IMG/VR virus record: IMGVR_UViG_3300009503_000022
Span: 32,001 to 96,000 of that record
Length of the DNA: 64,000 bases
Strand: one strand, 5' to 3'
Origin: a virus
Shown one piece after another: positions 1 through 30,467 of the stretch (position 1 is its first letter; each line of letters starts with the position of its first letter). A program made the position numbers and the translations under genes. A model generated the notes under the pieces. That model saw only the letters and a program-made list of their open reading frames with translations. It was not told the DNA's origin and did no database searches.

Positions 1-1267
1 TTTTATTATCTCTTATCATTAACAATATATCGTGAATTTTACTATCTTCTTTTTCGATATAATGACAATCATTAGTAATAACAGTTTTTATTCCAAGTTC
101 TTTTGCTAATTTACACAATAATTTATTAATAATAATCTGTTCTTTTAAATCTATTAATAACAACTCTATATACAAATCATCTCCGAATATTTGTTTATAA
201 TTTAATGCTATTTCTTTTGCCTTATCATAATTATTTTTTGATAACTCAGTAGATATCTCTCCACCTAAACAACTAGTTAAACAAATTAATCCTTCGGAAT
301 GTTTCTTTATAAATTCTATATCAGTTCTTGGCTTAAAATAAAATCCATTAATCCAAGCATCTGAAGAAATCTTAATTAAATTATTAAAACCTATTTTATT
401 TTTAACTAAAAGTATAATATGATTATTTTTTTTAAATAATTTATAATCTTCACTTTTAACATTATCCTTATATTCTAACTTATTACGATAATTATTTATA
501 TATAATTCGCATCCAAAAATAGGTTTTATTCCATATTTTTTTGCTTCAAAATATTGTCTTATCCATCCACCAATTTGACCATGATCTGTTATACTACATA
601 CATCTAACTTATTATTATAAGCAAATCTAACATATTCTTCAGGAGAACATAAACCATCTCTAATAGAATAAATACTATGACAATGTAATTGTACAAATTT
701 ATTCCTATTATTTTTTATTTCGTCAATTTTATCTTTTATATTTAAAAGTTGTTTAGAATATTCTTCTATTTTCATTTTTCCATAATTACAAAAACTTGGA
801 TGATAAATAGAATAATATAAAATACCTTTTTCTACTTTTAACTCATTATTTTCTTTTAATCCAAAATAATTAGAAGCAAATTTACCTACAGTTATTATTA
901 TTTTAGGCCTAACTATTTCTATTTCTCTTAATAAAAAATCTTTACAATTTTCTAATATATCATCTGAAGGCATAACATTATTCTTAGTAGAACATTTTAC
1001 AAGATTAGTTACATAAATATCTTCAAAATCTAAACCTACATTTTTTAACATAGATTCAAATATTGGTCTTATTTTATCATCTAAAAAAATTTTATTATTT
1101 ATTCCTCTATTATCTCGATAACAAGAAGGATTCTGTGCTATAAACATTATATCTGCTTTTTCATTTCCAGAATATTCTACTATTTCTTCATTTACTTTTA
1201 TAGATATTTTAATTTTACATTTTTTACAATTTCTACATTCTTCGTATATATTTTTAATATCATTCAT
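1..1267 (-). CDS. dnaE: Family-4-like uracil-DNA glycosylase fused to DNA polymerase III alpha (PHP domain); runs off the window edge
   Basis: Not in the ORF track; translated by hand from ATG 1267 (ATGA overlap with the upstream stop). UDG part: MNDIKNIYEECRNCKKC..ADIMFIAQNP..IYVTNLVKC..NCKDFLLREIEIVRPKIIITVG..IYHPSF. It continues in frame into FVQLHCHSIYSIRDG..SITDHG..GIKPIFGCELY (DnaE PHP). Confidence 0.9.
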   Translation of the reverse strand, partial: MNDIKNIYEECRNCKKCKIKISIKVNEEIVEYSGNEKADIMFIAQNPSCYRDNRGINNKIFLDDKIRPIFESMLKNVGLDFEDIYVTNLVKCSTKNNVMPSDDILENCKDFLLREIEIVRPKIIITVGKFASNYFGLKENNELKVEKGILYYSIYHPSFCNYGKMKIEEYSKQLLNIKDKIDEIKNNRNKFVQLHCHSIYSIRDGLCSPEEYVRFAYNNKLDVCSITDHGQIGGWIRQYFEAKKYGIKPIFGCELYINNYRNKLEYKDNVKSEDYKLFKKNNHIILLVKNKIGFNNLIKISSDAWINGFYFKPRTDIEFIKKHSEGLICLTSCLGGEISTELSKNNYDKAKEIALNYKQIFGDDLYIELLLIDLKEQIIINKLLCKLAKELGIKTVITNDCHYIEKEDSKIHDILLMIRDNK

Positions 1268-2010
1268 TTTTTTAAAAATATTTTAGGTCTATCATTCCAA
1301 AAACAAACTGGTAATTTATTACAATACATATTTATTTCTTTCAAAAATAACTTAGACATCTGTCTAGGACTATATACATTATTCGAATAATAATACTCTT
1401 TAAAATGACCATAAGCACAAAATTTAAACGTATTATTAATCACTAAATATTTATTACAAACATTTAATAATTGATGTAATAAATCTATAGGATATTCAAT
1501 ATGTTCAAACAATTCTAACAAAAAAATTACATCATATTTTCTTTCAAATACATCTTTTTCATTATTTAATATCTCTATATCATTATTTTTAATTTTATTA
1601 AAATATATTTTTTGTATAGAATTATCTAAATTATAATAATATACTTTTGAATTTTTAAAAAGATCACTTATTAAATTTGTAGTTAATCCAATTCCTACGC
1701 CATAATCTAATATAGATTTTATATCTTCATTTTTTAAAACACTATAAGTTTTTAATACAGTATCTTTAGAAAATCTAACAAAACATCTTAAAGCAGCATA
1801 TAAATAAATATCTTTAAAATATATACTAAAATCTTTATAACCATTACCTTTACACCAATAATCATCAATAGAATTTTCTAACTCTTCTACGTCTTTAATA
1901 CTCAAATTCTTATTTAAAAATATATTAATATTATTCAATAAGTCTTTATATTTATATTTATTTAAAATTTCGTTCATATTTATATCATTCATATTTATGT
2001 AATGATCCAA
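1264..2010 (-). CDS. Class I SAM-dependent methyltransferase
   Basis: ILDYGVGIG motif I and YDVIFLLELFEHIEYP; true start may be ATG 1992. Confidence 0.75.
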   Translation of the reverse strand: MDHYINMNDINMNEILNKYKYKDLLNNINIFLNKNLSIKDVEELENSIDDYWCKGNGYKDFSIYFKDIYLYAALRCFVRFSKDTVLKTYSVLKNEDIKSILDYGVGIGLTTNLISDLFKNSKVYYYNLDNSIQKIYFNKIKNNDIEILNNEKDVFERKYDVIFLLELFEHIEYPIDLLHQLLNVCNKYLVINNTFKFCAYGHFKEYYYSNNVYSPRQMSKLFLKEINMYCNKLPVCFWNDRPKIFLKK

Positions 2011-2449
2011 ATATACATATTATATCATTACAATATTTTATTTTTAAAGATTTAGACAAATCTTTTAAAATCCAACTAACTATAGACACATCTTGTTTTA
2101 ATTTCTTAATATCACAACTTCTCCAATAACTTATAACTCTAAGTTTTTTTGAATCAAATATAAATTGTAAAAATGAAATACACATATATATATTTTTCTC
2201 ATAATCTAAAAATCTCAAAACACATTGTCTAGTATCTATATTATTCTTCAAAAAATTTACTAAATAATTTTTATTTTTTAAATATTGCGATTTAATAGAT
2301 TTAAATTCTCTTTTATCACCAACTACTTTATTAATAAGTTTTAATTTCGTACTATATCCTATAATTTCTTTAGTTAATAAATTATTCCTATATATATTAT
2401 TACCATAAAGTTCTAAATCATTATAAATAGATATATAATCTTTTTTCAT
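1985..2449 (-). CDS. Short thymidylate synthase / dCMP-modifying enzyme homolog
   Basis: DTRQCV, catalytic C-I-S-F-L-Q-F, YWRSCD and GSLHKYE motifs of the TS fold; only 154 aa. Confidence 0.75.
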   Translation of the reverse strand: MKKDYISIYNDLELYGNNIYRNNLLTKEIIGYSTKLKLINKVVGDKREFKSIKSQYLKNKNYLVNFLKNNIDTRQCVLRFLDYEKNIYMCISFLQFIFDSKKLRVISYWRSCDIKKLKQDVSIVSWILKDLSKSLKIKYCNDIICIFGSLHKYE

Positions 2450-2455
2450 AATCTA

Positions 2456-2980
2456 TTATCCTATTATTTTATCTAAAATAGTTCTTAATTGACGCTTAGA
2501 ATAAGATAAATCATACGAATTATCAATAAAATACATCTTATCTTTATTTTTTTGATAATACATATTATAAGCATCATATAATTTATTATATATATTTATA
2601 TCGTTAATATTATGATCTTTTCTATTATAATATCTATTTAATAATACTTGACGATCAACATATATGTACAAATATATTATATTCTTAAATCTATAACTAT
2701 TAATATAAGAAATATCAGATTTTCTCTTAAATATTTTATGGTATATCACAAATGTAGGTATAAATCTATCTAATATTATATTTACATTAGCCCTATCTAT
2801 ATGTTTTAATAAATTAATTTCATTAATTTCTATAATATGTTGTAAATTCATCATATTTTCCCATTCTTTTTTATTAGTATATTTATATCTATTATATATA
2901 GGAATATTATATTTTCTACTTACATAATTAGCTAAAGTTGTTTTACCACAACAATCTATGCCTTCAAATACTATTATCAT
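2456..2980 (-). CDS. dNMP (thymidylate-like) kinase
   Basis: IIVFEGIDCCGKTT P-loop and IILDRF motif. Confidence 0.85.
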   Translation of the reverse strand: MIIVFEGIDCCGKTTLANYVSRKYNIPIYNRYKYTNKKEWENMMNLQHIIEINEINLLKHIDRANVNIILDRFIPTFVIYHKIFKRKSDISYINSYRFKNIIYLYIYVDRQVLLNRYYNRKDHNINDINIYNKLYDAYNMYYQKNKDKMYFIDNSYDLSYSKRQLRTILDKIIG

Positions 2981-3882
2981 TTTTCAAATCCTATAATATC
3001 TTTTAATGAATTTATTCTTATAATGTTCGTATTTATATATCCCTGATTATATTCATTATTCAATAAAAATACTCTATATCCTAAATTAGCTAAACTATTA
3101 GCATAATTCAAATCATCTTCTATTATAAAATTTGCTTGAGGTAAAATTTTAACAATCTTATCTGATTTATCTTCATCGAAAAACAATGCATCGCATTTTA
3201 AATTATTCTTATTAATCCAATACAACGTATCATAAAAAATTCTAACATATTTCTTATATGGTCTAGCACTTAATAAAACTATCTTATAACCTTTACTACT
3301 TAAATAATCTAACAACTCCTTTGCATAAGGCATTAATTCTAATTCTCTTTTAATTCCAGAAATTCTATATTTATGTTTCAAATCTTTATAATTTCGTAAT
3401 TTATGCAATTCGTCAAATTTATAATTTGCATTTAATTCTTTATTTACAAAATCAACAATCGCTTTATGATAATTTGCCAAAACTCCATCTATATCTACTA
3501 TACAAATTTTTTGTTCATCTTTAAGTAAATTTAATTTAATTTCTTGTTTCCATCTTTGGTATACAACTTCAGATTTATCTTTAAATTTTTGCTTAAAATC
3601 TTCAAATGAAAAACCCCATATTTGAAATAATCCTAAAAGAAACTTTTGACAATCAACCAATTCCTCTAATAAATTATCTAATATAACCTCTTTTTCTTCT
3701 TTGCGATGCATCTTCCAATTAATACTATTTAATACTTCAATTGTTTCAGATATAATACTCAAAATAATTTCTTTAGTCCAATATTGTTTTTGCTCTATAC
3801 TAAATTCATCCATACTAGTTCCACGATACTTATAAAATTCTTCATTAAACTTTTTTTGTATTTCCCAAATCTCATTATCCAT
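2977..3882 (-). CDS. Dimeric dUTPase/MazG-like NTP pyrophosphatase fused to a HAD 5'-nucleotidase
   Basis: N-term ETIEVLNSINWKMH..LEELVDCQKF; C-term VDIDGVLA, LLSAR, IIEDD. Confidence 0.8.
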   Translation of the reverse strand: MDNEIWEIQKKFNEEFYKYRGTSMDEFSIEQKQYWTKEIILSIISETIEVLNSINWKMHRKEEKEVILDNLLEELVDCQKFLLGLFQIWGFSFEDFKQKFKDKSEVVYQRWKQEIKLNLLKDEQKICIVDIDGVLANYHKAIVDFVNKELNANYKFDELHKLRNYKDLKHKYRISGIKRELELMPYAKELLDYLSSKGYKIVLLSARPYKKYVRIFYDTLYWINKNNLKCDALFFDEDKSDKIVKILPQANFIIEDDLNYANSLANLGYRVFLLNNEYNQGYINTNIIRINSLKDIIGFEK

Positions 3883-3885
3883 ATT

Positions 3886-4773
3886 TTATATTCCTTTACT
3901 AATATCTATAGACTTTTTTATAACTTGATTTATTCTAATATTATGTTTCCACTCTGCATATCGTCCTAAATATATTATATCAGGGTTTTCTATTAATTTT
4001 AAATTTTCATTTATTATTTTTCCATATTTTTCAATATAAAATGCAATATAAGATTTATGCAAATAATCATTATATTTATCAAAATCATCACCTAAAAATT
4101 CTATAACAGAAATTTTATCATTTATTCTTGTTACTCTATAAAAAGGTATAATATTATCTATAAAATAAACAAAATCATATTTTTTTGGAAAAATTAAATT
4201 TATTACAAAAAATGAAATTGGTTTATAATAAGAAAATTCATTTTCGATAAATGTATTTGTTAATTTAATAAATACTATAGCGGGAATAGTAGAAACAATT
4301 TTATCGTATTTAAACGTTGTAGATTTTGTATATATCAATTTATTATTAATATCTATTGAAATAATATCATCTATAATTATATCTTTTTCGAATTTCTTAT
4401 AAAAAAATTCTATTAATTTTTCATAATCAAATTTCCAATATCTAAAAGTACTTTTACCACTATTCATTATCCCGTCGATATTTACATCTCTACTTGTTTT
4501 CTTAATATAATCTTTTATTACAGAATCATTAAGTTTATCATGAAAATCACCATTATAATAATATCCTATATTACATACAGATCGATGAAATTTAACAAAT
4601 CTACCAATATCTCTAACAAATCTATTAGAATATTTATCTAAATGCAAATATCGGGGACCTAATTGAAAATTCGATCTTAACTGGCCCCCGACATCTTTTG
4701 TTATTATTTTATATTCTGGGTTATAAAACTTAAATATTAACCCAGCAATACCACCACCTAAAATATATTTCAT
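3886..4773 (-). CDS. FAD-dependent oxidoreductase (UDP-galactopyranose mutase / protoporphyrinogen oxidase-like)
   Basis: ILGGGIAGL dinucleotide motif, VGG, GPRYLH, YDKIVSTIP, YLGRYAEWKH. Confidence 0.75.
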   Translation of the reverse strand: MKYILGGGIAGLIFKFYNPEYKIITKDVGGQLRSNFQLGPRYLHLDKYSNRFVRDIGRFVKFHRSVCNIGYYYNGDFHDKLNDSVIKDYIKKTSRDVNIDGIMNSGKSTFRYWKFDYEKLIEFFYKKFEKDIIIDDIISIDINNKLIYTKSTTFKYDKIVSTIPAIVFIKLTNTFIENEFSYYKPISFFVINLIFPKKYDFVYFIDNIIPFYRVTRINDKISVIEFLGDDFDKYNDYLHKSYIAFYIEKYGKIINENLKLIENPDIIYLGRYAEWKHNIRINQVIKKSIDISKGI

Positions 4774-5783
4774 TTTTCAACCTTAATAGAATATTTTTCA
4801 CCATCTTTTATTATCTGAGCATTTTTTGGTTTATATTTATCTACATTTAAAATATAATGAATACGTTTTTTAATATAATTTTTATCATAATCGTACATTT
4901 TAGTATTAATAATTTTTTCAGCTACTTCATCTATTGTATATAAACCTTCACTAAAAATAGAAACTATAGTTTTAGATAAAGGTTTTCTCTTTACCTCGTT
5001 TGTTTTATTTTCGGTCATATTTACCTCCTTTTCATTTGTTTCAGTTAATTCATAATCAGGCGGAATTTTACATTCATCTATATATTTATTATCTAAACGT
5101 TTAAATATAAGCTCACCTCCTATATTAGATTTTAACGTTACTTTAGCTCCTTTCTTGGTCAAATATATTACGCCCATTTTAGCATCTTTTGCTAACACTT
5201 TATTCATATTATCTCCTCCTTTTATTATTATATTATATAATATATCACGAAATTTTCTCTTTTTTAACATACTAATCGACGCTTTGCTTCTTCTTATTCC
5301 AAATTGCGTTTTTAAACAATATTGTATATCTTTTAATTTATAACCCTCTAATCTTAACTTAAAAATATATGCCTCTATATCACTAAGACGTTTCGATATA
5401 AATTCTATAAGTTCATCATATTCTATTTTATCTATAATATCAGAATCAGATACAACTATTTTATCAAAAACTTCTTTACGAACATTTTTCCAATATGCGT
5501 GCGTTTTAACATCCTCGTCAAAATTTTTATCATCATTTTGATCTAAAGATTCAAAACATTTACTTTGATCATAAAGTTGTTTATATCTTCGGCGTAAACA
5601 AAAAGTGAGAAATGTTGAATATTTTGATATTTTAGAATTATACTTCTTATTTTTATATAATTCCCAACATTTTATCCTACCTTCTTGAACTAAATCTTCA
5701 AACGAATATCCTGGTATATTATAATTTTTAGCAATTGATTTTATCAATGGTTCTTCTTGTTTTAATAATTCTTCAAATGTCAT
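4770..5783 (-). CDS. Sigma-70 family factor with a C-terminal extension (possible winged helix)
   Basis: FEDLVQEGRI (region 2), KYSTFL, LSDIEAYIFKLRLEGYKLKDI (region 4); two internal in-frame SD+ATG at 5207 and 5018. Confidence 0.8.
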   Translation of the reverse strand: MTFEELLKQEEPLIKSIAKNYNIPGYSFEDLVQEGRIKCWELYKNKKYNSKISKYSTFLTFCLRRRYKQLYDQSKCFESLDQNDDKNFDEDVKTHAYWKNVRKEVFDKIVVSDSDIIDKIEYDELIEFISKRLSDIEAYIFKLRLEGYKLKDIQYCLKTQFGIRRSKASISMLKKRKFRDILYNIIIKGGDNMNKVLAKDAKMGVIYLTKKGAKVTLKSNIGGELIFKRLDNKYIDECKIPPDYELTETNEKEVNMTENKTNEVKRKPLSKTIVSIFSEGLYTIDEVAEKIINTKMYDYDKNYIKKRIHYILNVDKYKPKNAQIIKDGEKYSIKVEK

Positions 5784-5818
5784 AATACCTCCTCTCAGTA
5801 AGATTTTTTCCTATATAT

Positions 5819-5827
5819 ATTATAACA
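5819..5827 (-). promoter_or_regulatory. Extended -10 promoter (TGTTATAAT) upstream of the sigma gene
   Basis: Perfect TGnTATAAT in the intergenic gap, followed by SD GAGGAGG; such motifs can arise by chance in AT-rich DNA. Confidence 0.5.
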
Positions 5828-5849
5828 AAAAATGCGTAAAAATTAATAC

Positions 5850-6797
5850 CTATTTTATTATCTCCTTATTCTTATAAGATACTTTTAATTCTAAACGACT
5901 ACATTCATCAGGATCTTTACCTTCTGGCAATTTCATTATATATATATTATCAAAATAATATTTTAATTTACTAGCAAATTTTAACGATGCTTTATAACCC
6001 CAATTTTCTTTTTTATTAGAATCATTATCAAAACAAAAAACAATATTTCTTACATTTTTATCTATAAGCAATTTAATTTGCTCATTACTAATAGATATAC
6101 CAAAAATACATAAAGCATTTTTAAATCCTTTTTCCCATAAAGACATTGCATCAAACGGACCTTCAACTAATATTACTTCTTTATTTTTAATAAATCTTTT
6201 AGAAAAATCTAAATTATCATAATTAAATAAAGTTTCTTTAACCTTAAAATTTAACGGAAAAATATAAGGTTTTTCTAGACTATTAGAATAATCTCTAGCA
6301 ACAAATCCTTTTATTTTTTTCTTTAATATGATAGGTATTATTATTCTATTTTTAAAATATCCTTCTTCACATTTACCTAATTTAAAAAATTTAATAGTTT
6401 TCCATTCTAATCTATTCAATAAATATTTTGGACAATCTTTTATACTTTCTATCTTTTTAAATTCTTTCGGTAATTCAATAATAACATCATTTCTTTTCTT
6501 TTCTTTTATATGTTTCTTTTCTATTAAATTTATCCTAAAAAATTTCTGTTCGCCATATATTATTTTTCTAGCTTCATCAAAACTACAATTTCTTAATTTA
6601 GCTACAAAGCTAACTATACTTCTACCACCAATTTCTTCAGTAAAACAATGCCATTTACCATTATATTTATTTATAGAAAATGATACTTTTTCATCATCAT
6701 GAAATGGACAATAACAACCAATTTCTTTATTATTTTCGTATGCTATTTTAACTTTAAATCTTTCTAAAATATTATGTATAAGCTCATCTTGTCTCAT
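5850..6797 (-). CDS. dnaG: DNA primase (CHC2 zinc finger + TOPRIM)
   Basis: CPFHDD..WHCF, RIIIP, ILVEGPFDAM, FCFDND, KDPD. Confidence 0.92.
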   Translation of the reverse strand: MRQDELIHNILERFKVKIAYENNKEIGCYCPFHDDEKVSFSINKYNGKWHCFTEEIGGRSIVSFVAKLRNCSFDEARKIIYGEQKFFRINLIEKKHIKEKKRNDVIIELPKEFKKIESIKDCPKYLLNRLEWKTIKFFKLGKCEEGYFKNRIIIPIILKKKIKGFVARDYSNSLEKPYIFPLNFKVKETLFNYDNLDFSKRFIKNKEVILVEGPFDAMSLWEKGFKNALCIFGISISNEQIKLLIDKNVRNIVFCFDNDSNKKENWGYKASLKFASKLKYYFDNIYIMKLPEGKDPDECSRLELKVSYKNKEIIK

Positions 6798-6798
6798 C

Positions 6799-8196
6799 TT
6801 AAAAATCTTCTACTTTCATTCGTGAAAACATTTGTTTAATCGGTATAATACTCTCTTCAGTATGTCTATGCTTAGTCAATTCTAATCTAATTCTTCCTAA
6901 AATTTTATCTTCTTCATTTACTTTAAAACCAATTAAATAATCAGCTTCTTCAGCTAACATTCTAGCATATTTAATATGCTCTGTTGTAATCTTTTCTCCA
7001 GGTTTTACAACACCTAATTGTGCCGCTGTTAATATTGTTATATTATAATTTCTAGCCAAACCTTTGAGTTGTCTAGCAATCATACCTAAATCTCGCCAAT
7101 AATCCTTTGTACGAAAATCAGGCTCCATTCTATTTAAATGATCAATTATAATTAAAGGACAATCGTGCTTCTTCAAAATATTCTTAATCTCCAATTCAAT
7201 TAACTTTACAGTACATCCTCTTGGAATATCATATATATAAAATTTTTCTTTTCTCATTTTAAATTTATTTTGTATTTCTTTATCTAATTCACAAATATCT
7301 ATTTTATTTATATCTATATCCTTAAACCATTTTTTAAATTTCTCTTTATCTTCTTTATCTATTAATCTTAAACATATTTTTTTATAATATTCTCTCTTTT
7401 CTTCATAAGTCAATAATTGATTTCTAATTTTATGATAATTAATACCCGTAACTAATGAATGATATCGTTCAATCTCTTGCTCATAAGACATCTCTAATAC
7501 AAACAATGCTACATTTATTTTAGAAATTTTATTCGCATTTTCTCCAAAATTTAATAAAAGAGCAGATTTTCCTTCACCAGTAACTGCACTTATAATTATC
7601 AATTCCCCTGGACGCCAACCACCTGTTAATTCATCTAATTTTTTTATACCTGTCAATATACCTTTAACAGAATTCGTTTTTTGATCATAATACTTTAATC
7701 TTTCTGCTAACATACTATTAATTTCGAATTTTCTAAAATTCTGAATCTCAATCATTTTTTTAGTTGAAAAAATAATATCTTCAATATTATCATACGCTTT
7801 ATGTATATCAGAAATATTTTTAACATTAGTATTTAATGTTATTATTAATCGACGACTTAAATATAAATATAATAATTTATCTAATATAAAATTAAATTCT
7901 TCAGGATTTATTTGCTTATTTTTCAATTGTTTAATAAATAACATTATATCTTGAAATTTAGATTGATCGTCAGAATAAATATCAGAAAAGATATTTTCGA
8001 GAATATTTAAAGTAGGAAATGTTAAATATCTACAATAATATTTTTTAATATGAGAAAATACCTCTTTACATTTTTCGTCAGAAAATACATTATCATCTAT
8101 TATTCTATCAATCGCTATTTTTATATATTTCTCATCATTAAGTATAAAAGATAACAAATCCTTTTCTAATGATAAATCACTTAATATTAGATCCAT
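6799..8196 (-). CDS. dnaB: Replicative DnaB-like helicase
   Basis: TGIKKLDELTGG..GELIIISAVTGEGKS, LEMS, IIIDH, LKGLAR..AAQL. Confidence 0.92.
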   Translation of the reverse strand: MDLILSDLSLEKDLLSFILNDEKYIKIAIDRIIDDNVFSDEKCKEVFSHIKKYYCRYLTFPTLNILENIFSDIYSDDQSKFQDIMLFIKQLKNKQINPEEFNFILDKLLYLYLSRRLIITLNTNVKNISDIHKAYDNIEDIIFSTKKMIEIQNFRKFEINSMLAERLKYYDQKTNSVKGILTGIKKLDELTGGWRPGELIIISAVTGEGKSALLLNFGENANKISKINVALFVLEMSYEQEIERYHSLVTGINYHKIRNQLLTYEEKREYYKKICLRLIDKEDKEKFKKWFKDIDINKIDICELDKEIQNKFKMRKEKFYIYDIPRGCTVKLIELEIKNILKKHDCPLIIIDHLNRMEPDFRTKDYWRDLGMIARQLKGLARNYNITILTAAQLGVVKPGEKITTEHIKYARMLAEEADYLIGFKVNEEDKILGRIRLELTKHRHTEESIIPIKQMFSRMKVEDF

Positions 8197-8410
8197 CGAT
8201 AATCCCCAAATATTTATGATTTAAATACTTTGAATATATAATTTTTCTACATTCTCTACAACGAATAATATTTTTATCATCGCCTCTATTATAAGTATTA
8301 CTATATCTAATCTTCATACCTGGATAAGGTTTTTCCTTATAATAAAATGCTATCTTATTACAATATGGACATATTTGATAATATATTACTTTTTTATTTT
8401 TTTTAACCAA
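8177..8410 (-). CDS. Small zinc-ribbon protein
   Basis: CPYC and CREC pairs. Confidence 0.55.
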   Translation of the reverse strand: MVKKNKKVIYYQICPYCNKIAFYYKEKPYPGMKIRYSNTYNRGDDKNIIRCRECRKIIYSKYLNHKYLGIIDGSNIK

Positions 8411-8428
8411 AATATTTCACCTCTTTTA

Positions 8429-9349
8429 TTAATTATAAATTTCTTCCCAACCTTCTACTCTTTCGAGCATATTCAAAAATGTTTGATCCCAATGACCTTT
8501 ACCTGATATATCCATTTTATCTTGAATCCTCTTATCGTCAATTAAATATCTCATATAAATATTAATTTCAGGATCTAATGCCCAACGATTCATTTTTGGA
8601 TTCCACAACCCCAATTTATACAATTTATCAAAACACCATTTCAAATTACAATCATTTACTTGTTGCCATCCCCAATCTTTAGTTGTTTTAATTAATCTAT
8701 GTTCATTTCCTTTTATACTCTTAACTCTCGTTCCATTATTACCAATATAACCTCTTTCGTCTTTTGCATATTCAATCCCATTAACACCATACCAATTTAC
8801 TATCTTATTTTCGTTATTCTTAATCTCTTTATATCTTGTACCATCATTACATATATATCCATTCCTATCTTTTGCATAATTTTGATGAACTAAATCAGGA
8901 TTAAAATTACTTTCTACAGGTTGTTGAGCTAAACTTCTTAATGCACACTCTCTAATAGTTTTTCCATAAAATCTCAACTCACCCTTTTGCTTCAAAATTT
9001 CAGCACAACTAAAAGATAATCTTATAGCTAATTCAACATTAGCCTCGTCTTTATCGTTCATTTTCATTCCCCAAGCAGCATATCTACCTAAAATTCTATT
9101 TTTTAAATTCATAAAATAAACTCTTTTTTTATCTAATTTATTTTGTTCAATCTTAACTTTTAAATTTTCTAATTCTTTTTGAGCATTATCTAACGTTTCA
9201 TTTAAAACATTAATTTTATCTAATTCATAACTATATCTATTTTTTAAATTCTCTATATCATTTTTTATCTTAATAGAATATCTAATAATTATCATAGAAA
9301 TCAATATCGATATTGATATTATAATAATTACACGAGATTTTAATTTCAA
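8429..9349 (-). CDS. Membrane-anchored lytic transglycosylase (SLT)-like protein
   Basis: Likely TTG start at 9349 after AAGGAGG; N-terminal TM helix, coiled coil, VESNFNP, DWGWQQVN, LDPEINI motifs. Confidence 0.6.
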   Translation of the reverse strand: MKLKSRVIIIISISILISMIIIRYSIKIKNDIENLKNRYSYELDKINVLNETLDNAQKELENLKVKIEQNKLDKKRVYFMNLKNRILGRYAAWGMKMNDKDEANVELAIRLSFSCAEILKQKGELRFYGKTIRECALRSLAQQPVESNFNPDLVHQNYAKDRNGYICNDGTRYKEIKNNENKIVNWYGVNGIEYAKDERGYIGNNGTRVKSIKGNEHRLIKTTKDWGWQQVNDCNLKWCFDKLYKLGLWNPKMNRWALDPEINIYMRYLIDDKRIQDKMDISGKGHWDQTFLNMLERVEGWEEIYN

Positions 9350-9359
9350 AGAACCTCCT

Positions 9360-10082
9360 TTATTCTTTACTTTTAAGTAATTTATTCCAATTTTTACCTT
9401 GTTTTTCCCTAAAATCTTTACCACTTATTGTAATAAATTTAAAATTACTTTTCATAAGCGATGATAAAGAACTACCATATTTATTTTCTAAATCTTTCTT
9501 AGTTAAATTTGTAGTTATTATAGAAGGTAAACAATTTCTTCTTCTATAGCGAAATAATAGACTCATTTCAGAAACACAAAATGCTCCAAAATCTTTTGGA
9601 GTATATTCTTCTGATAAATCATCTAAAGCTAAAAAATCAATATTTTTAATTTCATCATATAATTTTATAGCATCAGAATCTTCTTCAGAAAAAGGCTTTT
9701 TAATCAATTTTAATAATTCAGCTAACGTTATAAAATATATCGTATATTTTTTAGCTAAAGCAGCTTTAAGTATTAATATAGACGCTAATGTTTTACCAAC
9801 ACCATGCGAACCACTCAATCCTAAACTTAAACCATATTTAAAAGCATTATCTATATTTTTAATATAATCTTCAATTACTCCTTTAGCAATCTTATCGCCT
9901 TTAAAATCATCTAAAGTAGAATCCCAATATTCTTCTTCAATACCTCTAAAAAATAAAGTAATATAATATTCAAATTTTTTCATACATCTACATTTTTTAT
10001 TATTTACAATACCCTTACCTTTACAAATTTTACATCTATTTAACATATCTTTTTTTAATCTTTCAAATCTTTCAATTATCAT
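9360..10082 (-). CDS. DnaC/IstB-like helicase loader ATPase
   Basis: CxxC..CxC N-term, GSHGVGKT Walker A, FLALDDL Walker B, IITTN. Confidence 0.85.
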   Translation of the reverse strand: MIIERFERLKKDMLNRCKICKGKGIVNNKKCRCMKKFEYYITLFFRGIEEEYWDSTLDDFKGDKIAKGVIEDYIKNIDNAFKYGLSLGLSGSHGVGKTLASILILKAALAKKYTIYFITLAELLKLIKKPFSEEDSDAIKLYDEIKNIDFLALDDLSEEYTPKDFGAFCVSEMSLLFRYRRRNCLPSIITTNLTKKDLENKYGSSLSSLMKSNFKFITISGKDFREKQGKNWNKLLKSKE

Positions 10083-26689: not shown

Positions 26690-29600
26690 TTATGCTAAAA
26701 CTGTATATATATTATTAAAGTTAAAAACTACAGTAGTTGTATTTTTAGCATATCCTACAATTTGAACTACTTTACCAGAACCGCTTGGGGGAGTCTGCGT
26801 TAAACTTCCTGATGCTGACACATAAATTTTTCCACCTACTGTCCAATTCCAACTTGGATTACTTACTTCTCCAATAATTAAAGCATCACCAGTATTACCT
26901 ACTGCTAAATTTGTTAACATTATTCCACAAGCAGGCATTGTAGATTCTGAATTTGAATCGGCTTTACCATATTCGTCAGAATTAGTAGTTTTATAAATTA
27001 CATCATAAGTACTTAATCCACCTGTAGCAGCTTTAACCTTAATCGTAACATCACTTCTACCAGAACTACCTGTAATACAAATTACAGTTCCTGATTCTGG
27101 ACTTGCAAATGTTATAGTTAACTGATTAGTTGAATTATGTACTATTGAATTAGGTATTATAACAGCATTATTATTATCTATAACTTGAACTTGTGGATAA
27201 GCATTTAAATTATGATTAACTACTACAGTCGTTTGATTTGTAAATGATGTTTCTACTCTATTAGTCGAAGTTCCTACCATTACTCTAAATGTAACTTTTT
27301 CTCCAGCAATTCTACCAGTATTAAATGTTACTCTTGTTGAACTAGTTTCTACATAATCATCATTTACTCTTTTCAAAATACCATCACAAAATACTTGTAA
27401 ACTATTATCACCTTGTTGATAACTAAATGGTAAATCGAATACAGTTTGTCCTTCTGTTGCTATAAATGCTGCATATCTTGGTAAAACTCCTACTGTCCCT
27501 CCTGCTCCTCCACCACCAAGATTTAAAAACATACGAACATCTTTAATGTCATTTTCGTCTATTACTACTGTTCCCGTCTCTGTAATTGTAATTTCTGCTA
27601 ATACTTGTTTATTTGTAGGATAATTTTCTGGTAATGGTGAAGAATTTTCTGTTCCTGCTATCCTACTTAATACTCCTGCATCGTCAATACATAATAAATC
27701 AATTCTTGGATTTGTTGTAACAGGAGGAAATATAGGCGAATCTCCACCTGTAAATGTAACAGAACCAGTACCATCTGATTTAACAAATGTTCCCGGTCTA
27801 ACTGTAACTTTATTATCAGGAGTAGTTCTTGGAACTACTTTTAATTCATCAGTATTTCGTATATTAAGTCTTTTTAAATTAGACGAATCTGCACTACTTA
27901 TTAAACCATTAATATTTAAATTTCCTCCAACTATCAAATTATCGTCTGTTTTTAATGTATTTGCACTATCTCTATATAAATTAGTATCATTTTGCCAAAT
28001 AATTTTATTATTTCCTACAAACAAAAGATCTAAATCTACAAAATCTACTTCTCCAACTCCATTCTTTTTTCTAAAATAAGAATAACCATAAATATTTGCA
28101 TTACCATCATTTACTACTAATCCATTTTGAGCTATAATTTGACCATTTGCGATTATGTCATATTGAACTTCAAAATTATCATCTGTTTTTAATGTATCTG
28201 CAGCAGAACGATATAATTTAACATCAGCAGAAGAACCATAATAAATAGCTCCTTCTTCAAGATAAATATTAGCTCCATGCGTTGCAATTCCACTATCAGC
28301 ATTAATTATTCCTCCCATATAAAGAGAATTTAAATACATTCTTCCTGTCGATAAACCAGGAACACCATCTATTATATCTCTATATAAATTAACATCACTA
28401 CCAAATCTTAAAGGATATGTTACACTACTATCTTGTAACGTAACTAATCCTCTTATTGTAGTTGTATTTGTATTACCACTTCCTAATATACTATTACCAT
28501 TAACAGTTAATGTTAATCCAACTATTAAATTATCATCTGTCTTTAATGTATCGCTTCCATTACGATAAAGAATAATATCATCTGTTGAGCCAAAATATAT
28601 CGCAGCATTATCATTTTTTAAACGAATTATCCCAGTAGGGTTAACTATAACTTCTCCTGAAGAATATAAATTTCCATTAACATTTAAAGTATCATCTATT
28701 TTTAATACATTTGCACTTTCACGATATAAATCTACATCTGCTCCAAGTTTTAAAGTATGTGTTCCATCACTATCTATTAAAACAAGTGATCCTTTTATAG
28801 TTGTAGTATTTGAAATTGCATTCCCTAAAATTATAGTACCTGTAGCACTAAATATTGTATCATTTATAACTACATTTCCCCCTATAGATAATATATTTAA
28901 ACCATCTAACCAAATTTTAACACCAGGATTTCCTGAATAAAATAATTGAATTTCTCCATTATTTGTTAAATATAACTTAGTTGAACCCGCTACATCAAAA
29001 TACATATAATTATTAGTATGATTTATCCCTATTCTACCAATTGTAGCATTATCCGTATCTCCAAAATATAAATTAGAAAATCCTGAATTTCCTGCAATTA
29101 TACTAATAGAAGCTGATTTTCCAGAAGTTTCTGAATTATTTACTATAAAATCATCATCGGTTTTTAATATATTTTCTGCAAAACGATATAAATTAACATC
29201 GCTGTCAGTACCAAAATAAATAATACTATTATTTGATGCTAAATATAAATTATTTCCTATAACAAAAGAATCGTCTGTTTTTAAAACATTAACATTATTT
29301 CTATACAGATTAACATCATATAAATTCGAACCATCATACCACTCTATCTTACCATCATTTGTTATTCTCAATTTTATAGAATTTTCTGTTCCATTCCAAG
29401 TTCTAAAATAAGTATATCCTGTCGAACCAAATGTTATATAATTATCGTGATTACTACCATAATCAAATAAAATATCTCCATACGATCCAATATGCAAACT
29501 AGCAATCGGATTTACTTTTATACCAAGTTTACCATCTTTATCAAATACTAAAAATAAATTACTATTTTCGTCAATTATATTGATAATATTTCCAGTTTGA

Positions 29601-29830
29601 TTAGTAATTCTCTTTAAATTAAGCGTATTATCACCAATAATTTCAGATAAAATAGTGCTTTTAATAGATAATGTATTTGAAACATTACTTCCTAAAACTA
29701 AATTTCTCGCTAATTTAGAACTTACAACTGCATTATCTTGTATTTCAGAAGTCCCTACAGAATTAGATGCAAGATCAACATCTAATATTACATCTAACCC
29801 AATATCAGAACTTTGTATTTGAGTTAACAT
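26690..29830 (-). CDS. Long tail fibre protein with D-x-x-LYR..LKTDD repeats
   Basis: Seven repeat copies, NPRIDL motif, HNLN..P.VQV domains. Confidence 0.75.
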   Translation of the reverse strand: MLTQIQSSDIGLDVILDVDLASNSVGTSEIQDNAVVSSKLARNLVLGSNVSNTLSIKSTILSEIIGDNTLNLKRITNQTGNIINIIDENSNLFLVFDKDGKLGIKVNPIASLHIGSYGDILFDYGSNHDNYITFGSTGYTYFRTWNGTENSIKLRITNDGKIEWYDGSNLYDVNLYRNNVNVLKTDDSFVIGNNLYLASNNSIIYFGTDSDVNLYRFAENILKTDDDFIVNNSETSGKSASISIIAGNSGFSNLYFGDTDNATIGRIGINHTNNYMYFDVAGSTKLYLTNNGEIQLFYSGNPGVKIWLDGLNILSIGGNVVINDTIFSATGTIILGNAISNTTTIKGSLVLIDSDGTHTLKLGADVDLYRESANVLKIDDTLNVNGNLYSSGEVIVNPTGIIRLKNDNAAIYFGSTDDIILYRNGSDTLKTDDNLIVGLTLTVNGNSILGSGNTNTTTIRGLVTLQDSSVTYPLRFGSDVNLYRDIIDGVPGLSTGRMYLNSLYMGGIINADSGIATHGANIYLEEGAIYYGSSADVKLYRSAADTLKTDDNFEVQYDIIANGQIIAQNGLVVNDGNANIYGYSYFRKKNGVGEVDFVDLDLLFVGNNKIIWQNDTNLYRDSANTLKTDDNLIVGGNLNINGLISSADSSNLKRLNIRNTDELKVVPRTTPDNKVTVRPGTFVKSDGTGSVTFTGGDSPIFPPVTTNPRIDLLCIDDAGVLSRIAGTENSSPLPENYPTNKQVLAEITITETGTVVIDENDIKDVRMFLNLGGGGAGGTVGVLPRYAAFIATEGQTVFDLPFSYQQGDNSLQVFCDGILKRVNDDYVETSSTRVTFNTGRIAGEKVTFRVMVGTSTNRVETSFTNQTTVVVNHNLNAYPQVQVIDNNNAVIIPNSIVHNSTNQLTITFASPESGTVICITGSSGRSDVTIKVKAATGGLSTYDVIYKTTNSDEYGKADSNSESTMPACGIMLTNLAVGNTGDALIIGEVSNPSWNWTVGGKIYVSASGSLTQTPPSGSGKVVQIVGYAKNTTTVVFNFNNIYTVLA

Positions 29831-29855
29831 AAATTATTCCTCCAATTAATTTTTT

Positions 29856-30242
29856 TTATGCTCCATTATGTCTATATATTACAAAAAAAGACGTCGTATT
29901 CGTATTCGGTATATAATTCATCGTTAATACTTTTCCTGAAAGAGTATAATCATTATCGCTTCCTATTCTTCTAACTATACCATTATGAATTACCCATATA
30001 GGTCCAATAGGAGTATAACTTAAATTAAAAATATTAGTCGTTCCATTTACTAAAGAAGTTAAATCATCATAACCCCAAAATAATCCAATATTAGACATTA
30101 TAGCATCTAAAATTGTCTGAGTACTATCGTGCTTTAACCTTAAATTTTCACCAGTAATAGAATCAGTAACATGCGTTGAATCAATTGTATGAAATTTTAA
30201 AGAATTCTCTTTTATATCCTCTGACTGTATTTTTCTTGCCAT
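29856..30242 (-). CDS. Tail/baseplate accessory protein
   Basis: DLTSLVNGTTNIF..HNGI..DY domain shared with the 32655 and 26690 proteins. Confidence 0.55.
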   Translation of the reverse strand: MARKIQSEDIKENSLKFHTIDSTHVTDSITGENLRLKHDSTQTILDAIMSNIGLFWGYDDLTSLVNGTTNIFNLSYTPIGPIWVIHNGIVRRIGSDNDYTLSGKVLTMNYIPNTNTTSFFVIYRHNGA

Positions 30243-30254
30243 ATATATTACTCC

Positions 30255-30467
30255 TTATTCTTTATTTTGTGCTATAATACTTAACAATCTTGCAATATCA
30301 CCTAAAAAAATATTGTGTGCTTTTTGAACACACATTCCTTCTGATATAGTTTCACCTTTTTCATTTTTAGAATACAATACTACCCATAATGCACATTTTT
30401 CTTGAATACATTTTTTTCTAAATCCTAAAAAAGTTTTATCACATTTCAAATTCAATTTCTTTTCCAT
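30255..30467 (-). CDS. Small Cys-containing hypothetical protein
   Basis: CIQEKCALW..GMC. Confidence 0.5.
   Translation of the reverse strand: MEKKLNLKCDKTFLGFRKKCIQEKCALWVVLYSKNEKGETISEGMCVQKAHNIFLGDIARLLSIIAQNKE

Follow-up and report, generated by a model that had tools for sequence, protein, structure and literature searches.

A conserved phage gene cassette that may remodel the pyrimidine deoxynucleotide pool ahead of a UDG-DnaE replicase

The best explanation for six genes at the start of the window (the whole 64,000-nucleotide stretch of viral DNA that was analysed) is that they are the upstream section of a cassette that remodels the pool of pyrimidine deoxynucleotides just ahead of the phage replicase. 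The set is a conserved, uncharacterised cassette common to many uncultured phages. Thymidine supply and the exclusion of uracil, the ordinary reading for most of the genes, explain much of it, and the set may in addition deliver a modified cytosine or thymine for incorporation into phage DNA. A probability of about 0.45 is assigned to the proposal that, beyond ordinary dTTP supply, the cassette leads to one or more non-canonical pyrimidines in the phage DNA, with a C5-substituted cytosine the likeliest.

The source phage is uncultured and AT-rich (26% G+C) and comes from hot-spring metagenomes. The six genes are all on the minus strand, and the last of them is the phage's own DNA polymerase gene:

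3886..4773, minus strand: flavoprotein resembling UDP-galactopyranose mutase (UGM), 295 aa (24-sequence profile, AF2 model, Foldseek, VIA-align)
2977-3882, minus strand: pyrophosphatase-HAD fusion, 301 aa (Pfam dUTPase_2 and NT5C)
3523..3882, minus strand: N-terminal all-alpha NTP pyrophosphatase domain of the fusion, dimeric-dUTPase type (Pfam, domain profile)
2977..3522, minus strand: C-terminal HAD phosphatase domain of the fusion, NT5C 5'(3')-deoxyribonucleotidase type (Pfam NT5C; 3bwv)
2456..2980, minus strand: Tmk-like dNMP kinase, 174 aa (phrog_761 and sequence motifs)
1985..2449, minus strand: minimal thymidylate synthase (TS)-fold protein, termed mini-TS, 154 aa (phrog_160, family profile, model)
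1264..2010, minus strand: class I SAM-dependent methyltransferase, 248 aa from a TTG start (Methyltransf_23, 8.6e-9)
2..1267, minus strand: UDG-PHP-DnaE replicase, first 422 of 1407 aa (Pfam/PHROG matches)

Neighboring genes overlap by 4 nt or are separated by gaps of 3 to 6 nt, as expected from the overlapping or abutting order described in the original prediction, and no terminator-like sites were found within 1-9500. In fold and family the six proteins agree with the identities given there: a UGM-like flavoprotein, a pyrophosphatase-HAD fusion, a dNMP kinase, a short TS homolog, a methyltransferase and a UDG-DnaE protein. The neighbourhood search proposed at that time located the same arrangement in 25 non-redundant viral loci, a recurrence that is therefore not due to chance; the operon is tight and its arrangement is conserved across viral contigs. 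In 20 of the 25 loci the flavoprotein adjoins the pyrophosphatase domain or is fused to it; a ThyX-like gene is nearby in 22, and a mini-TS gene lies within 7 kb in only 14. A whole-contig search of 12 contigs added one further mini-TS and detected none in a complete 95.9-kb phage. Four gene fusions occur among the relatives, namely flavoprotein-pyrophosphatase, pyrophosphatase-HAD, kinase-mini-TS (in locus L025) and UDG-DnaE. The relatives' cassettes also contain tailoring-type genes, including an SDR epimerase or RmlD-like enzyme in nine loci, a radical SAM enzyme in four, and aldo-keto reductase, aminotransferase and methyltransferase genes, while the L005 cassette includes a dCTP deaminase.

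The N-terminus of the flavoprotein reads GGGIAG, with the GxGxxG glycines at G6, G8 and G11. The 24-sequence profile matched UDP-galactopyranose mutases in the PDB (E 2.4e-8), and the AF2 model (pLDDT 92.8) had UGMs as its best Foldseek matches (E 1e-13); VIA-align superposed 292 of 295 residues on Aspergillus fumigatus UGM with a Z score of 23.4. No Pfam family (GLF included), NCBIfam or PHROG function matched. The protein is a stripped-down UGM core that, like UGM (Glf), comprises an FAD Rossmann core and a beta-sheet domain. The profile match spans the YFPE...F-R motif, including the substrate-binding Arg, and in the HMM alignment the conserved residues Y203, R213 and G270-R271 probably pair with Y317, R327 and R447 of A. 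fumigatus UGM; W275 is also conserved. In contrast to UGMs of 360 to 510 aa, the protein has ~295 residues, such that ~180 UGM residues are without a counterpart; GPR appears to take the position of the UGM His-loop motif in this family, and the genomic partner is the dUTPase-type domain rather than sugar genes.

The pyrophosphatase-HAD fusion matched Pfam dUTPase_2 with E 1.5e-4 (22.5 bits, slightly below the 22.9-bit cut-off) and NT5C with 2.2e-8. A profile of the pyrophosphatase domain matched dimeric dUTPases (2.7e-6), the best PDB entries being those of L. major, T. brucei, T. cruzi and C. jejuni, and the domain carries the metal motifs ExxE (E46, E49) and ExxD (E74, D77) together with QxxFN (Q9, F12). 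No other dUTPase candidate was found in the genome, which is 76% complete. The HAD domain contains motif I (D130-I-D132-G-V-L-A) and resembles 3bwv, a putative 5'(3')-deoxyribonucleotidase. The kinase matched the phrog_761 thymidylate kinases (2.3e-15) and has a GIDCCGKTT P-loop and a DRF motif.

The mini-TS matched phrog_160 (1.9e-6), and its family profile matched TS in the PDB (2.6e-16, with the L. casei N229D mutant as best match) and T4 dCMP hydroxymethylase (1.1e-15). In E. coli ThyA numbering, R74 corresponds to R126', the catalytic Cys90 to C146, R110-S111 to R166-S167, D113 to D169, D120 to N177, and H151 and Y153 to H207 and Y209. Across 19 divergent sequences R74, C90, R110, S111, D120 and H151 are invariant, and the mini-TS is a real, constrained family. 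The invariant Asp at the Asn177 position is a cytosine signature; an Asp there confers dCMP preference in TS homologs (PMC13326640). The model (pLDDT 95.8) is closest to cytosine C5-modifying enzymes, with VIA-align Z scores of 16.2 for MilA, 16.0 for the HY126 AfhB dCMP hydroxylase (153 residues aligned, rmsd 2.7) and 14.3 for T4 dCMP hydroxymethylase, compared with about 14 for ordinary TS. The protein lacks ThyA residues of about 42-108 and 211-264. With this ~40% of the fold go the C-terminal folate clamp and the stretches that bear E58, W80 and Y94; stripped of its folate-binding segments, it may be no folate enzyme, or no enzyme at all. TS homologs can use flavin in place of folate (PMC13326640).

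The methyltransferase is not a member of a DNA methyltransferase family, and translation more likely begins at an in-frame ATG (1992 or 1977) than at the TTG. It is sporadic within the cassette, with homologs in two of the 25 loci (L008, 1.9e-68, and L020) and a same-class enzyme in a third, which weakens the SAM-dependent decoration originally envisaged. The replicase gene extends beyond the start of the window as far as genome position 29044; its UDG-superfamily domain, with four Cys, motif A 'AQNPS' and motif B 'HPS', is fused to PHP-DnaE. Directly after DnaE, beyond the window, come genes for a ThyX-like protein with an intein and for a dCMP deaminase. The ThyX-like protein matched Pfam Thy1 (9.1e-20) and its subfamily profile matched ThyX structures (3.3e-18), yet it scored 43.8 bits against TIGR02170, below the 87.9-bit cut-off, found no match in a single-sequence search of the PDB, reads RAR where ThyX has RHR, and has an extra C-terminal Cys motif besides the intein.

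Taken as a pathway, the dimeric-dUTPase-type domain would hydrolyse dUTP, and possibly dCTP, to the monophosphate, and dTMP would come from the dCMP deaminase and the ThyX-like enzyme. The mini-TS would bind dCMP through the Asp replacing Asn177, and attack of Cys90 on C6 would allow installation of a small C5 substituent. The phage's mini-TS reads RSCD, with Asp kept at the 169 position as in most of its closest family members; this residue and a hydrophobic residue at 143 suggest that the substituent is of the methyl and not the 5-hydroxy type. The products would be rephosphorylated by the Tmk-like kinase, and UDG-DnaE would excise uracil and polymerise. The flavoprotein may act on the pyrophosphatase product or, alternatively, provide or manage flavin used by the mini-TS or the ThyX-like enzyme; the methyltransferase would be optional tailoring. 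Across the 25 loci the flavoprotein follows the dUTPase-type domain and ThyX, not the mini-TS, and the predicted flavin-dependent decoration of the TS product is weakened accordingly.

The T4 hydroxymethylcytosine pathway consists of the gp56 dCTPase/dUTPase, the gp42 dCMP hydroxymethylase, the gp1 dNMP kinase, td and cd. The T4-like logic of the original prediction stands, as the cassette likewise combines an NTP pyrophosphatase, a TS-fold enzyme with Asp at the N177 position and a dNMP kinase, with a separate thymidylate synthase and dCMP deaminase. It is reinforced by the L025 kinase-mini-TS fusion, which parallels the gp42-to-gp1 hand-off. With dTMP synthesis already in the hands of the ThyX-like enzyme, thymidylate supply has no need of a further TS-fold enzyme. 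In contrast to T4, the TS-fold protein has 154 aa rather than 246 and no folate-binding segments, thymidylate is made by a divergent ThyX instead of ThyA, the pyrophosphatase carries a fused nucleotidase, a UGM-like flavoprotein is added, no glucosyltransferases were found in the studied phage, and the replicase is UDG-DnaE. The relatives' SDR/RmlD-like, radical SAM, aldo-keto reductase, aminotransferase and methyltransferase genes count in favor of DNA modification. Weak, non-specific support comes from MetaGPA, in which dUTPase_2 (11 versus 23 contigs), NT5C, Thy1 and dCMP deaminase were enriched in modified-cytosine contigs (PMC8670742 supplementary table 2). Also in its favor is the cultured Pseudomonas phage 14-1, which has both the flavoprotein and a ThyX-like enzyme and whose DNA contains hypermodified thymidine. 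Counting against it are the presence of the mini-TS in just over half of the loci and the loss of so much of its TS fold, the dUTPase-like pyrophosphatase profile and ordinary reading of every gene except the mini-TS, the glycosyltransferase searches of the 76% complete genome, which found none, and strong palindrome avoidance.

The principal alternative, ordinary thymidylate supply and uracil exclusion in a low-G+C phage of a hot environment whose DNA is canonical, is a serious though tentative contender. The dCMP deaminase and the dUTPase-type domain would provide dUMP, ThyX dTMP and Tmk dTDP, while UDG-DnaE would clear the uracil that dUTP use or cytosine deamination leaves behind. In this scheme the flavoprotein would assist the divergent ThyX in a redox or cofactor role, the mini-TS would bind dCMP as a regulator or scaffold, and the methyltransferase would be unrelated. 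The ThyX-like and dCMP deaminase genes directly after DnaE allow this ordinary reading for most of the genes, which weakens the modified-base operon reading. Canonical DNA is further favored by the dimeric-dUTPase matches of what is the only dUTPase candidate, the Tmk motifs, the flavoprotein's partners, the dCTP deaminase of L005, the palindrome avoidance and the hot-spring origin. Cytosine deamination is fast in hot environments. Left unexplained, however, are the kinase-mini-TS fusion and the retention, in a divergent family, of the cytosine-type Asp alongside the catalytic Cys, the Arg and Ser for phosphate binding, and the His and Tyr whose TS counterparts bind the 3'-OH. In addition, dTMP synthesis would be counteracted by a nucleotidase of the dUMP/dTMP type joined to a dUTPase, relatives' cassettes include SDR, radical SAM, aldo-keto reductase and aminotransferase genes, and the ThyX-like enzyme is far from canonical.

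Flavin-dependent 5-hydroxy-dCMP synthases include RB69 gp48, DLP3 gp80 and HY126 AfhB (PDB 9iqu, 9iqc), and Asn at the D169 position is their signature (PMC13326640). They act on dCMP, share the TS fold and the cytosine-type Asp with the mini-TS, and set the precedent of flavin for folate. That the mini-TS is a small enzyme of the AfhB/gp48 kind, with the methyltransferase O-methylating its product to give 5-methoxycytosine or 5-hydroxycytosine DNA, is improbable. The AfhB structural match, the flavoprotein within the same operon, the Asn at the D169 position in four relatives (L005, L008, L020 and L024) and the methyltransferase homologs in two of them speak for it. By the published signature, however, the phage's RSCD protein is not of the hydroxylase type, and the flavoprotein and mini-TS co-occur only in part. 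The mini-TS is also 60 to 80 residues shorter than these synthases, and arabinose or galactose activation genes and glycosyltransferases were not found here.

Least probable is a sugar-decorated pyrimidine bearing a UGM-made furanose, a methylated sugar or both, as in the glycosylated bases of RB69, DLP3 or RL38J1: UGM is the closest structure to the flavoprotein, a true UGM serves galactofuranosylated 5-hydroxycytosine in Rhizobium phage RL38J1 (PMC13326640), relatives encode RmlD- or GalE-like SDR enzymes, and pbunaviruses with the same flavoprotein family have a sugar-alcohol thymidine derivative, but the flavoprotein is short, unmatched by GLF and fused to a dUTPase-type domain rather than sugar-activating enzymes, and neither GT1, GT2 or T4-type glucosyltransferases nor homologs of the relatives' SDR, radical SAM, aldo-keto reductase and aminotransferase genes were found in the 76% complete genome. 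The transferases that were to be sought past dnaE thus did not appear, and the suggested furanose or methylated sugar is without support in this phage. Palindrome counts show 61 CATG against 215 expected and 218 GATC against 363; CATATG is absent against 27 expected, and GTAC is also strongly avoided. Such avoidance would be expected where restriction enzymes have access to the DNA and not where a bulky base shields it, and therefore argues against a bulky protective modification, sugars included.

Distant versions of the cassette occur in cultured phages, namely pbunaviruses and some actinophages. In Pseudomonas phage 14-1 the flavoprotein is gp66 (A1 profile, 2.2e-9) and the ThyX-like protein gp60 (9.8e-45); the DNA of 14-1 and pbunaviruses carries a thymidine hypermodification whose responsible genes have not been identified (PMC12191111). 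The A1 profile also matched in Gordonia phage Xenia2 (gp69-75 cluster, 1.1e-4) and Streptomyces phage Wentworth (gp54-56, 1e-6). These cultured-phage oxidoreductase-phosphatase clusters are very distant in sequence and have no mini-TS, and in the actinophages the pyrophosphatase-like gene is separate; as in the cassette, however, a HAD phosphatase homolog adjoins DnaE in both Xenia2 and Wentworth.

The window covers positions 32001-96000 of a single viral contig of 110,355 bp (~76% complete by CheckV), which is present in two hot-spring metagenome runs. The phage genome has a G+C content of ~26%, and every long ORF lies on the minus strand. Strand composition is extreme, with C 18%, G 8%, T 42% and A 32% on the plus strand of the whole genome, and the GC skew stays between -0.2 and -0.46 along the entire window. 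Each of the six genes named in the original prediction is present as named, overlapping or abutting its neighbor, and adjacent genes either share 4 nt or are separated by a few bases. Together they form the downstream part of a replication operon.

Genes of the operon and related features, window coordinates unless L001 or L002 (stretches of the phage's own genome) is indicated
6799-8196, minus: DnaB, first in transcription order
5850-6797, minus: primase, second, after DnaB
4770-5783, minus: sigma-70-like protein, 337 aa, with sigma-70 region 2; third, directly before the six cassette genes
3886-4773, minus: UGM-like flavoprotein, 295 aa, resembling UDP-galactopyranose mutases (UGM) by profile and AF2 model
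2977-3882, minus: pyrophosphatase-HAD fusion, 301 aa, an all-alpha pyrophosphatase joined to an NT5C-type HAD nucleotidase
2456-2980, minus: Tmk-like kinase, 174 aa, with P-loop and DRF motif
1985-2449, minus: mini-TS, 154 aa, a minimal thymidylate synthase (TS) fold by profile and predicted structure
1264-2010, minus: class I SAM methyltransferase, 248 aa, outside the DNA methyltransferase families
760-1267, minus: UDG-superfamily domain, N-terminal part of DnaE
L002:12570-14015 (genome 27570-29015), minus: ThyX-like gene with intein, just before the window start
L002:11261-12016, minus: SSB-like ORF, 251 aa, after the dCMP deaminase
L001:11613-14399, minus: N6/N4-type DNA methyltransferase, 928 aa, with a long insertion within the domain
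L001:5927-6670, minus: the phage's second N6/N4-type DNA methyltransferase, 247 aa

The sigma-70 region 2 gene and the start of the flavoprotein gene share 4 nt, which indicates that a phage sigma-like factor, primase and DnaB are transcribed together with the nucleotide genes; no terminator-like site was found within window 1-9500. Past the window start follow, in order, the remainder of DnaE, the intein-bearing ThyX-like gene, dCMP deaminase, an SSB-like protein, RecA and SbcCD-like genes. The SSB-like ORF has no Pfam match and ends in an acidic ...DDDFV tail of the type typical of SSB proteins. A blastn search of window 1-6000 against GenBank phages returned no match.

The mini-TS family profile matches TS structures in the PDB at 2.6e-16. 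The predicted structure contains the TS α/β fold with its central sheet, with a query-normalised Foldseek TM of ~0.8 against TS, and VIA-align superimposes 153 of its 154 residues on members of the TS superfamily with Z of 14 to 16. The ranking is led by MilA (Z 16.2) and HY126 AfhB (Z 16.0), followed by T4 dCH (Z 14.3) and TS (~14), and the model is nearest to the cytosine C5 enzymes. A full HMMER search through 1.84 billion representatives yielded a small family of 150-175-aa proteins; a word-based search recovered the query alone, and a profile search aimed at longer, fused forms gave no match.

Six residues are invariant in the 19-sequence family, R74, C90, R110, S111, D120 and H151, corresponding to E. 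coli ThyA R126', C146, R166, S167, N177 and H207; D113 and Y153 are equivalent to D169 and Y209. The catalytic cysteine (C146) and the phosphate-binding R166, S167 and R126' are all retained, and the mini-TS is presumed to be catalytically active. The uracil-selecting Asn177 (N229 in L. casei) is replaced by the invariant D120, and the best PDB match of the family profile is the L. casei N229D mutant, in agreement with this Asp-for-Asn change. Aspartate at TS position 177 leads to dCMP preference, and a hydrophobic residue at position 143 is associated with methyl products (PMC13326640). dCMP hydroxymethylases of the T4 gp42 type pair Asp177 with an acidic residue at the L143 position; in the mini-TS, Asp177 is present and position 143 is hydrophobic (I87, consensus Leu) in a loop where the HMM alignment is uncertain. 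The folate-binding and catalytic segments of canonical ThyA (E58, W80, W83, Y94 and the C-terminal tail) are missing, as the alignments span only ThyA residues ~4-41 and 109-209, the protein ends at the H207/Y209 motif, and residues ~42-108 and 211-264 have no counterpart. A decayed ThyA remnant was considered and rejected because the catalytic residues do not vary even between divergent family members.

We tentatively favor, at a probability of roughly 45%, a cassette that delivers one or more non-canonical pyrimidines, most probably by way of a small C5 substituent that the mini-TS places on cytosine. The predicted complex of flavoprotein, FAD and mini-TS scored 0.00 and was counted neither for nor against an association.

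The flavoprotein has no match in Pfam (E <= 0.01; GLF included), NCBIfam or the functional PHROGs, and a single-sequence PDB search gave nothing usable. A profile built from 24 homologues matches UDP-galactopyranose mutases at 2.4e-8, over a region that takes in the YFPE...F-R motif with the substrate-binding Arg, and the FAD-binding GxGxxG reads GGGIAG at residues 6-11. The AF2 model (pLDDT 92.8) has the overall UGM fold and aligns over 292 of 295 residues with Aspergillus fumigatus UGM (VIA-align Z 23.4), with protoporphyrinogen oxidase and bacterial UGMs trailing at Z ~19. At 295 aa versus 360 to 510, the protein falls short of the full three-domain UGM, which includes a uridine-binding helical domain; the aligned range skips ~180 UGM residues, and the predicted structure is that of a UGM core minus this number. 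The family is abundant and largely viral: the ESM Atlas contains at least 17 of its clusters, each with 50 to 150 members.

The pyrophosphatase domain scores just below the cut-off for Pfam dUTPase_2 (22.5 versus 22.9 bits). Its profile finds dimeric dUTPases as best matches (2.7e-6), and the ExxE...ExxD metal motifs are conserved in a domain about half the length of the solved dimeric enzymes. The HAD domain matches Pfam NT5C at 2.2e-8 (34.6 bits, cut-off 24.8), with motif I intact (D130-I-D132-G-V-L-A). The kinase matches phrog_761 at 2.3e-15 and has the P-loop and DR[YF] motif, with Pfam and TIGR00041 scores under their cut-offs. For the cassette methyltransferase, a single-sequence PDB search returned generic class I matches only, and a clamp-binding tail shared with DnaE was looked for in this phage and not seen. 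The UDG domain of DnaE (Pfam UDG, 1.3e-18) has four cysteines and motif B HPS. Its motif A is AQNPS, or GQNPS in most relatives, versus GE[AG]PG (GEAPG) in family 4; its specificity may therefore differ, and the substrate is perhaps not uracil alone.

The ThyX-like gene is interrupted at ...SKRMKF|C...ALHN|CEADAT by a class-1 intein of ~156 aa with Hint and homing-endonuclease-associated Pfam domains. Judged by its sequence, the enzyme is far from canonical. Its subfamily, in this phage and in the related viral loci (L005-L027), has RxR where ThyX has RHR (RAR here) and conserves a C-terminal cysteine motif, CDx5C...C..CG, that is absent from canonical ThyX and may form a metal or Fe-S site.

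An IMG/VR scan with the flavoprotein profile found 29 loci, 25 of them non-redundant, and iterative searches with the operon's proteins gave the gene counts per locus.

Occurrence of the cassette genes among the non-redundant flavoprotein loci
ThyX-like gene: 22/25
Pyrophosphatase domain adjoining the flavoprotein: 20/25, fused to it in 7
Kinase: 18/25
Mini-TS: 14/25
UDG: 14/25, fused to DnaE in 4
HAD domain: 12/25
Methyltransferase homologue: 2/25; a methyltransferase of the same class also occurs in the relative L018

A search of 12 whole contigs without a nearby mini-TS found one further copy, and the mini-TS is absent from a complete 95.9-kb phage. Thus, the core consists of the flavoprotein, the pyrophosphatase and the ThyX-like gene, with the mini-TS and kinase as a frequent add-on. 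Relatives also carry SDR epimerase or RmlD-like genes (9 loci), radical SAM genes (4 loci), and aldo-keto reductase, aminotransferase and dCTP deaminase genes in their cassettes, none of which has a homologue in this genome.

A serious, if less favored, possibility is purely canonical DNA, with the cassette serving ordinary dTTP supply and uracil exclusion. For an AT-rich phage living at high temperature, these two tasks are coherently covered by ThyX, dCMP deaminase, a dUTPase-type domain, Tmk and UDG-DnaE, and neither a trimeric dUTPase nor RNR was found in its ~76%-complete genome. Looking past dnaE, as the original prediction had proposed, reveals the ThyX-like gene and dCMP deaminase, and GT1, GT2 and T4 glucosyltransferase were not found in the ~76% of the genome covered; the T4-Gluco-transf control matched nowhere. 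Palindromes are also strongly avoided across the whole genome relative to a maximal-order Markov expectation (CATG 61 versus 215, GATC 218 versus 363, CTAG 126 versus 243, GTAC 96 versus 163, CATATG 0 versus 27; also GAATTC and GATATC), which suggests present or recent exposure of the phage DNA to restriction enzymes. However, ordinary supply does not account for the tailoring enzymes of the relatives or for the constraint on the catalytic residues of the mini-TS, and a nucleotidase fused to the pyrophosphatase would counteract dTMP synthesis. The ThyX-like enzyme also fits poorly, given its RAR, its cysteine motif, a score under the TIGR cut-off and a single-sequence PDB search that gave nothing usable.

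Distant versions of the core occur in cultured phages. A tblastn search of GenBank phages with the flavoprotein gave no match, and one with the pyrophosphatase-HAD protein hit 85 phage records through the HAD domain, almost all of them from actinophages. Two actinophages, Streptomyces phage Wentworth and Gordonia phage Xenia2, have, upstream of the HAD gene, an annotated oxidoreductase that matches the flavoprotein profile (1e-6 and 1.1e-4, respectively); in Xenia2 its neighbors, adjoining DnaE, are a methyltransferase and a FabG-like reductase. In Pseudomonas phage 14-1 (NC_011703; L037), gp66 (29284-30285), annotated as hypothetical, matches the flavoprotein profile at 2.2e-9, and gp60 (27152-28069) matches the ThyX-like profile at 9.8e-45. 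In F8 and 14-1, sugar-alcohol or aldopentose derivatives are reported to take the place of about one quarter of the thymidines, and no biosynthetic genes were assigned to them (Yee et al., PMC12191111). The presence of both genes in a phage with altered thymidine raises the prior for a core pair that does more than make dTMP.

In one such scheme, the flavoprotein and the His-less ThyX-like enzyme would perform a new flavin chemistry yielding polyol- or sugar-substituted thymidine nucleotides, to which the mini-TS of this phage would add a second activity, being then the smallest known TS-fold enzyme to modify dCMP and receiving its cofactor in trans. A carbon other than the folate methylene, for example a sugar C1 held as a flavin-N5 iminium (as in UGM), would be passed to C5 of dUMP in the manner of ThyX. 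Mass arithmetic fits such a transfer, as the nucleoside of 362 Da from Pbunavirus F8 would correspond to thymidine plus C4H8O4, i.e. deoxyuridine bearing a 1-deoxypentitol at C5. We nevertheless regard the scheme as unlikely. DNA containing 5-hydroxycytosine or 5-methoxycytosine is also improbable: D169N, the mark of flavin-dependent 5-hydroxy-dCMP synthases (PMC13326640), is found in four relatives (L005, L008, L020 and L024) and is absent here, where the mini-TS reads R110-S111-C112-D113. About as improbable is sugar decoration of the base, the part of the original prediction (a furanose or methylated sugar) that fared badly as the glycosyltransferase families were not found in the ~76% of the genome covered. 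Conservation in 25 viral loci bears out the cassette itself, and overall the original prediction holds for the genes and is supported in part for their proposed function.

Should the cassette produce a non-canonical pyrimidine, the enzymology of phage DNA modification would gain two uncharacterised families, namely minimal TS folds of 150-175 aa with cytosine-type residues and UGM-like flavoproteins of 300 aa linked to a dUTPase-type domain. The cassette could also explain thymidine hypermodification in the Pbunaviruses, which are in therapeutic use. If the function is ordinary, the cassette would represent a module for thymidylate and uracil control that is adapted to thermophily and includes an odd ThyX. 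Cultured carriers (14-1, F8 and several actinophages) make the question testable. The MetaGPA paper (PMC8670742) names the cassette families in a supplementary table only, not in its main text.

Further domain combinations are found in and around the cassette in relatives. A single-protein scan of genome contigs gave a lone weak match, in a Clostridia MAG. The flavoprotein-dUTPase_2 fusion is also found in some database homologues, and kinase and mini-TS are fused in L025. In three loci (L013:4134-4997, L014:9281-10174 and L022:3896-4762) an HhH-GPD DNA-glycosylase domain is fused to the N-terminus of the mini-TS, a hint that part of the family acts on DNA or close to it. The L005 cassette contains, between its SDR gene and ThyX, a Vsr-type mismatch endonuclease domain (L005:12677-13255) that might act in T:G repair or belong to a homing endonuclease.
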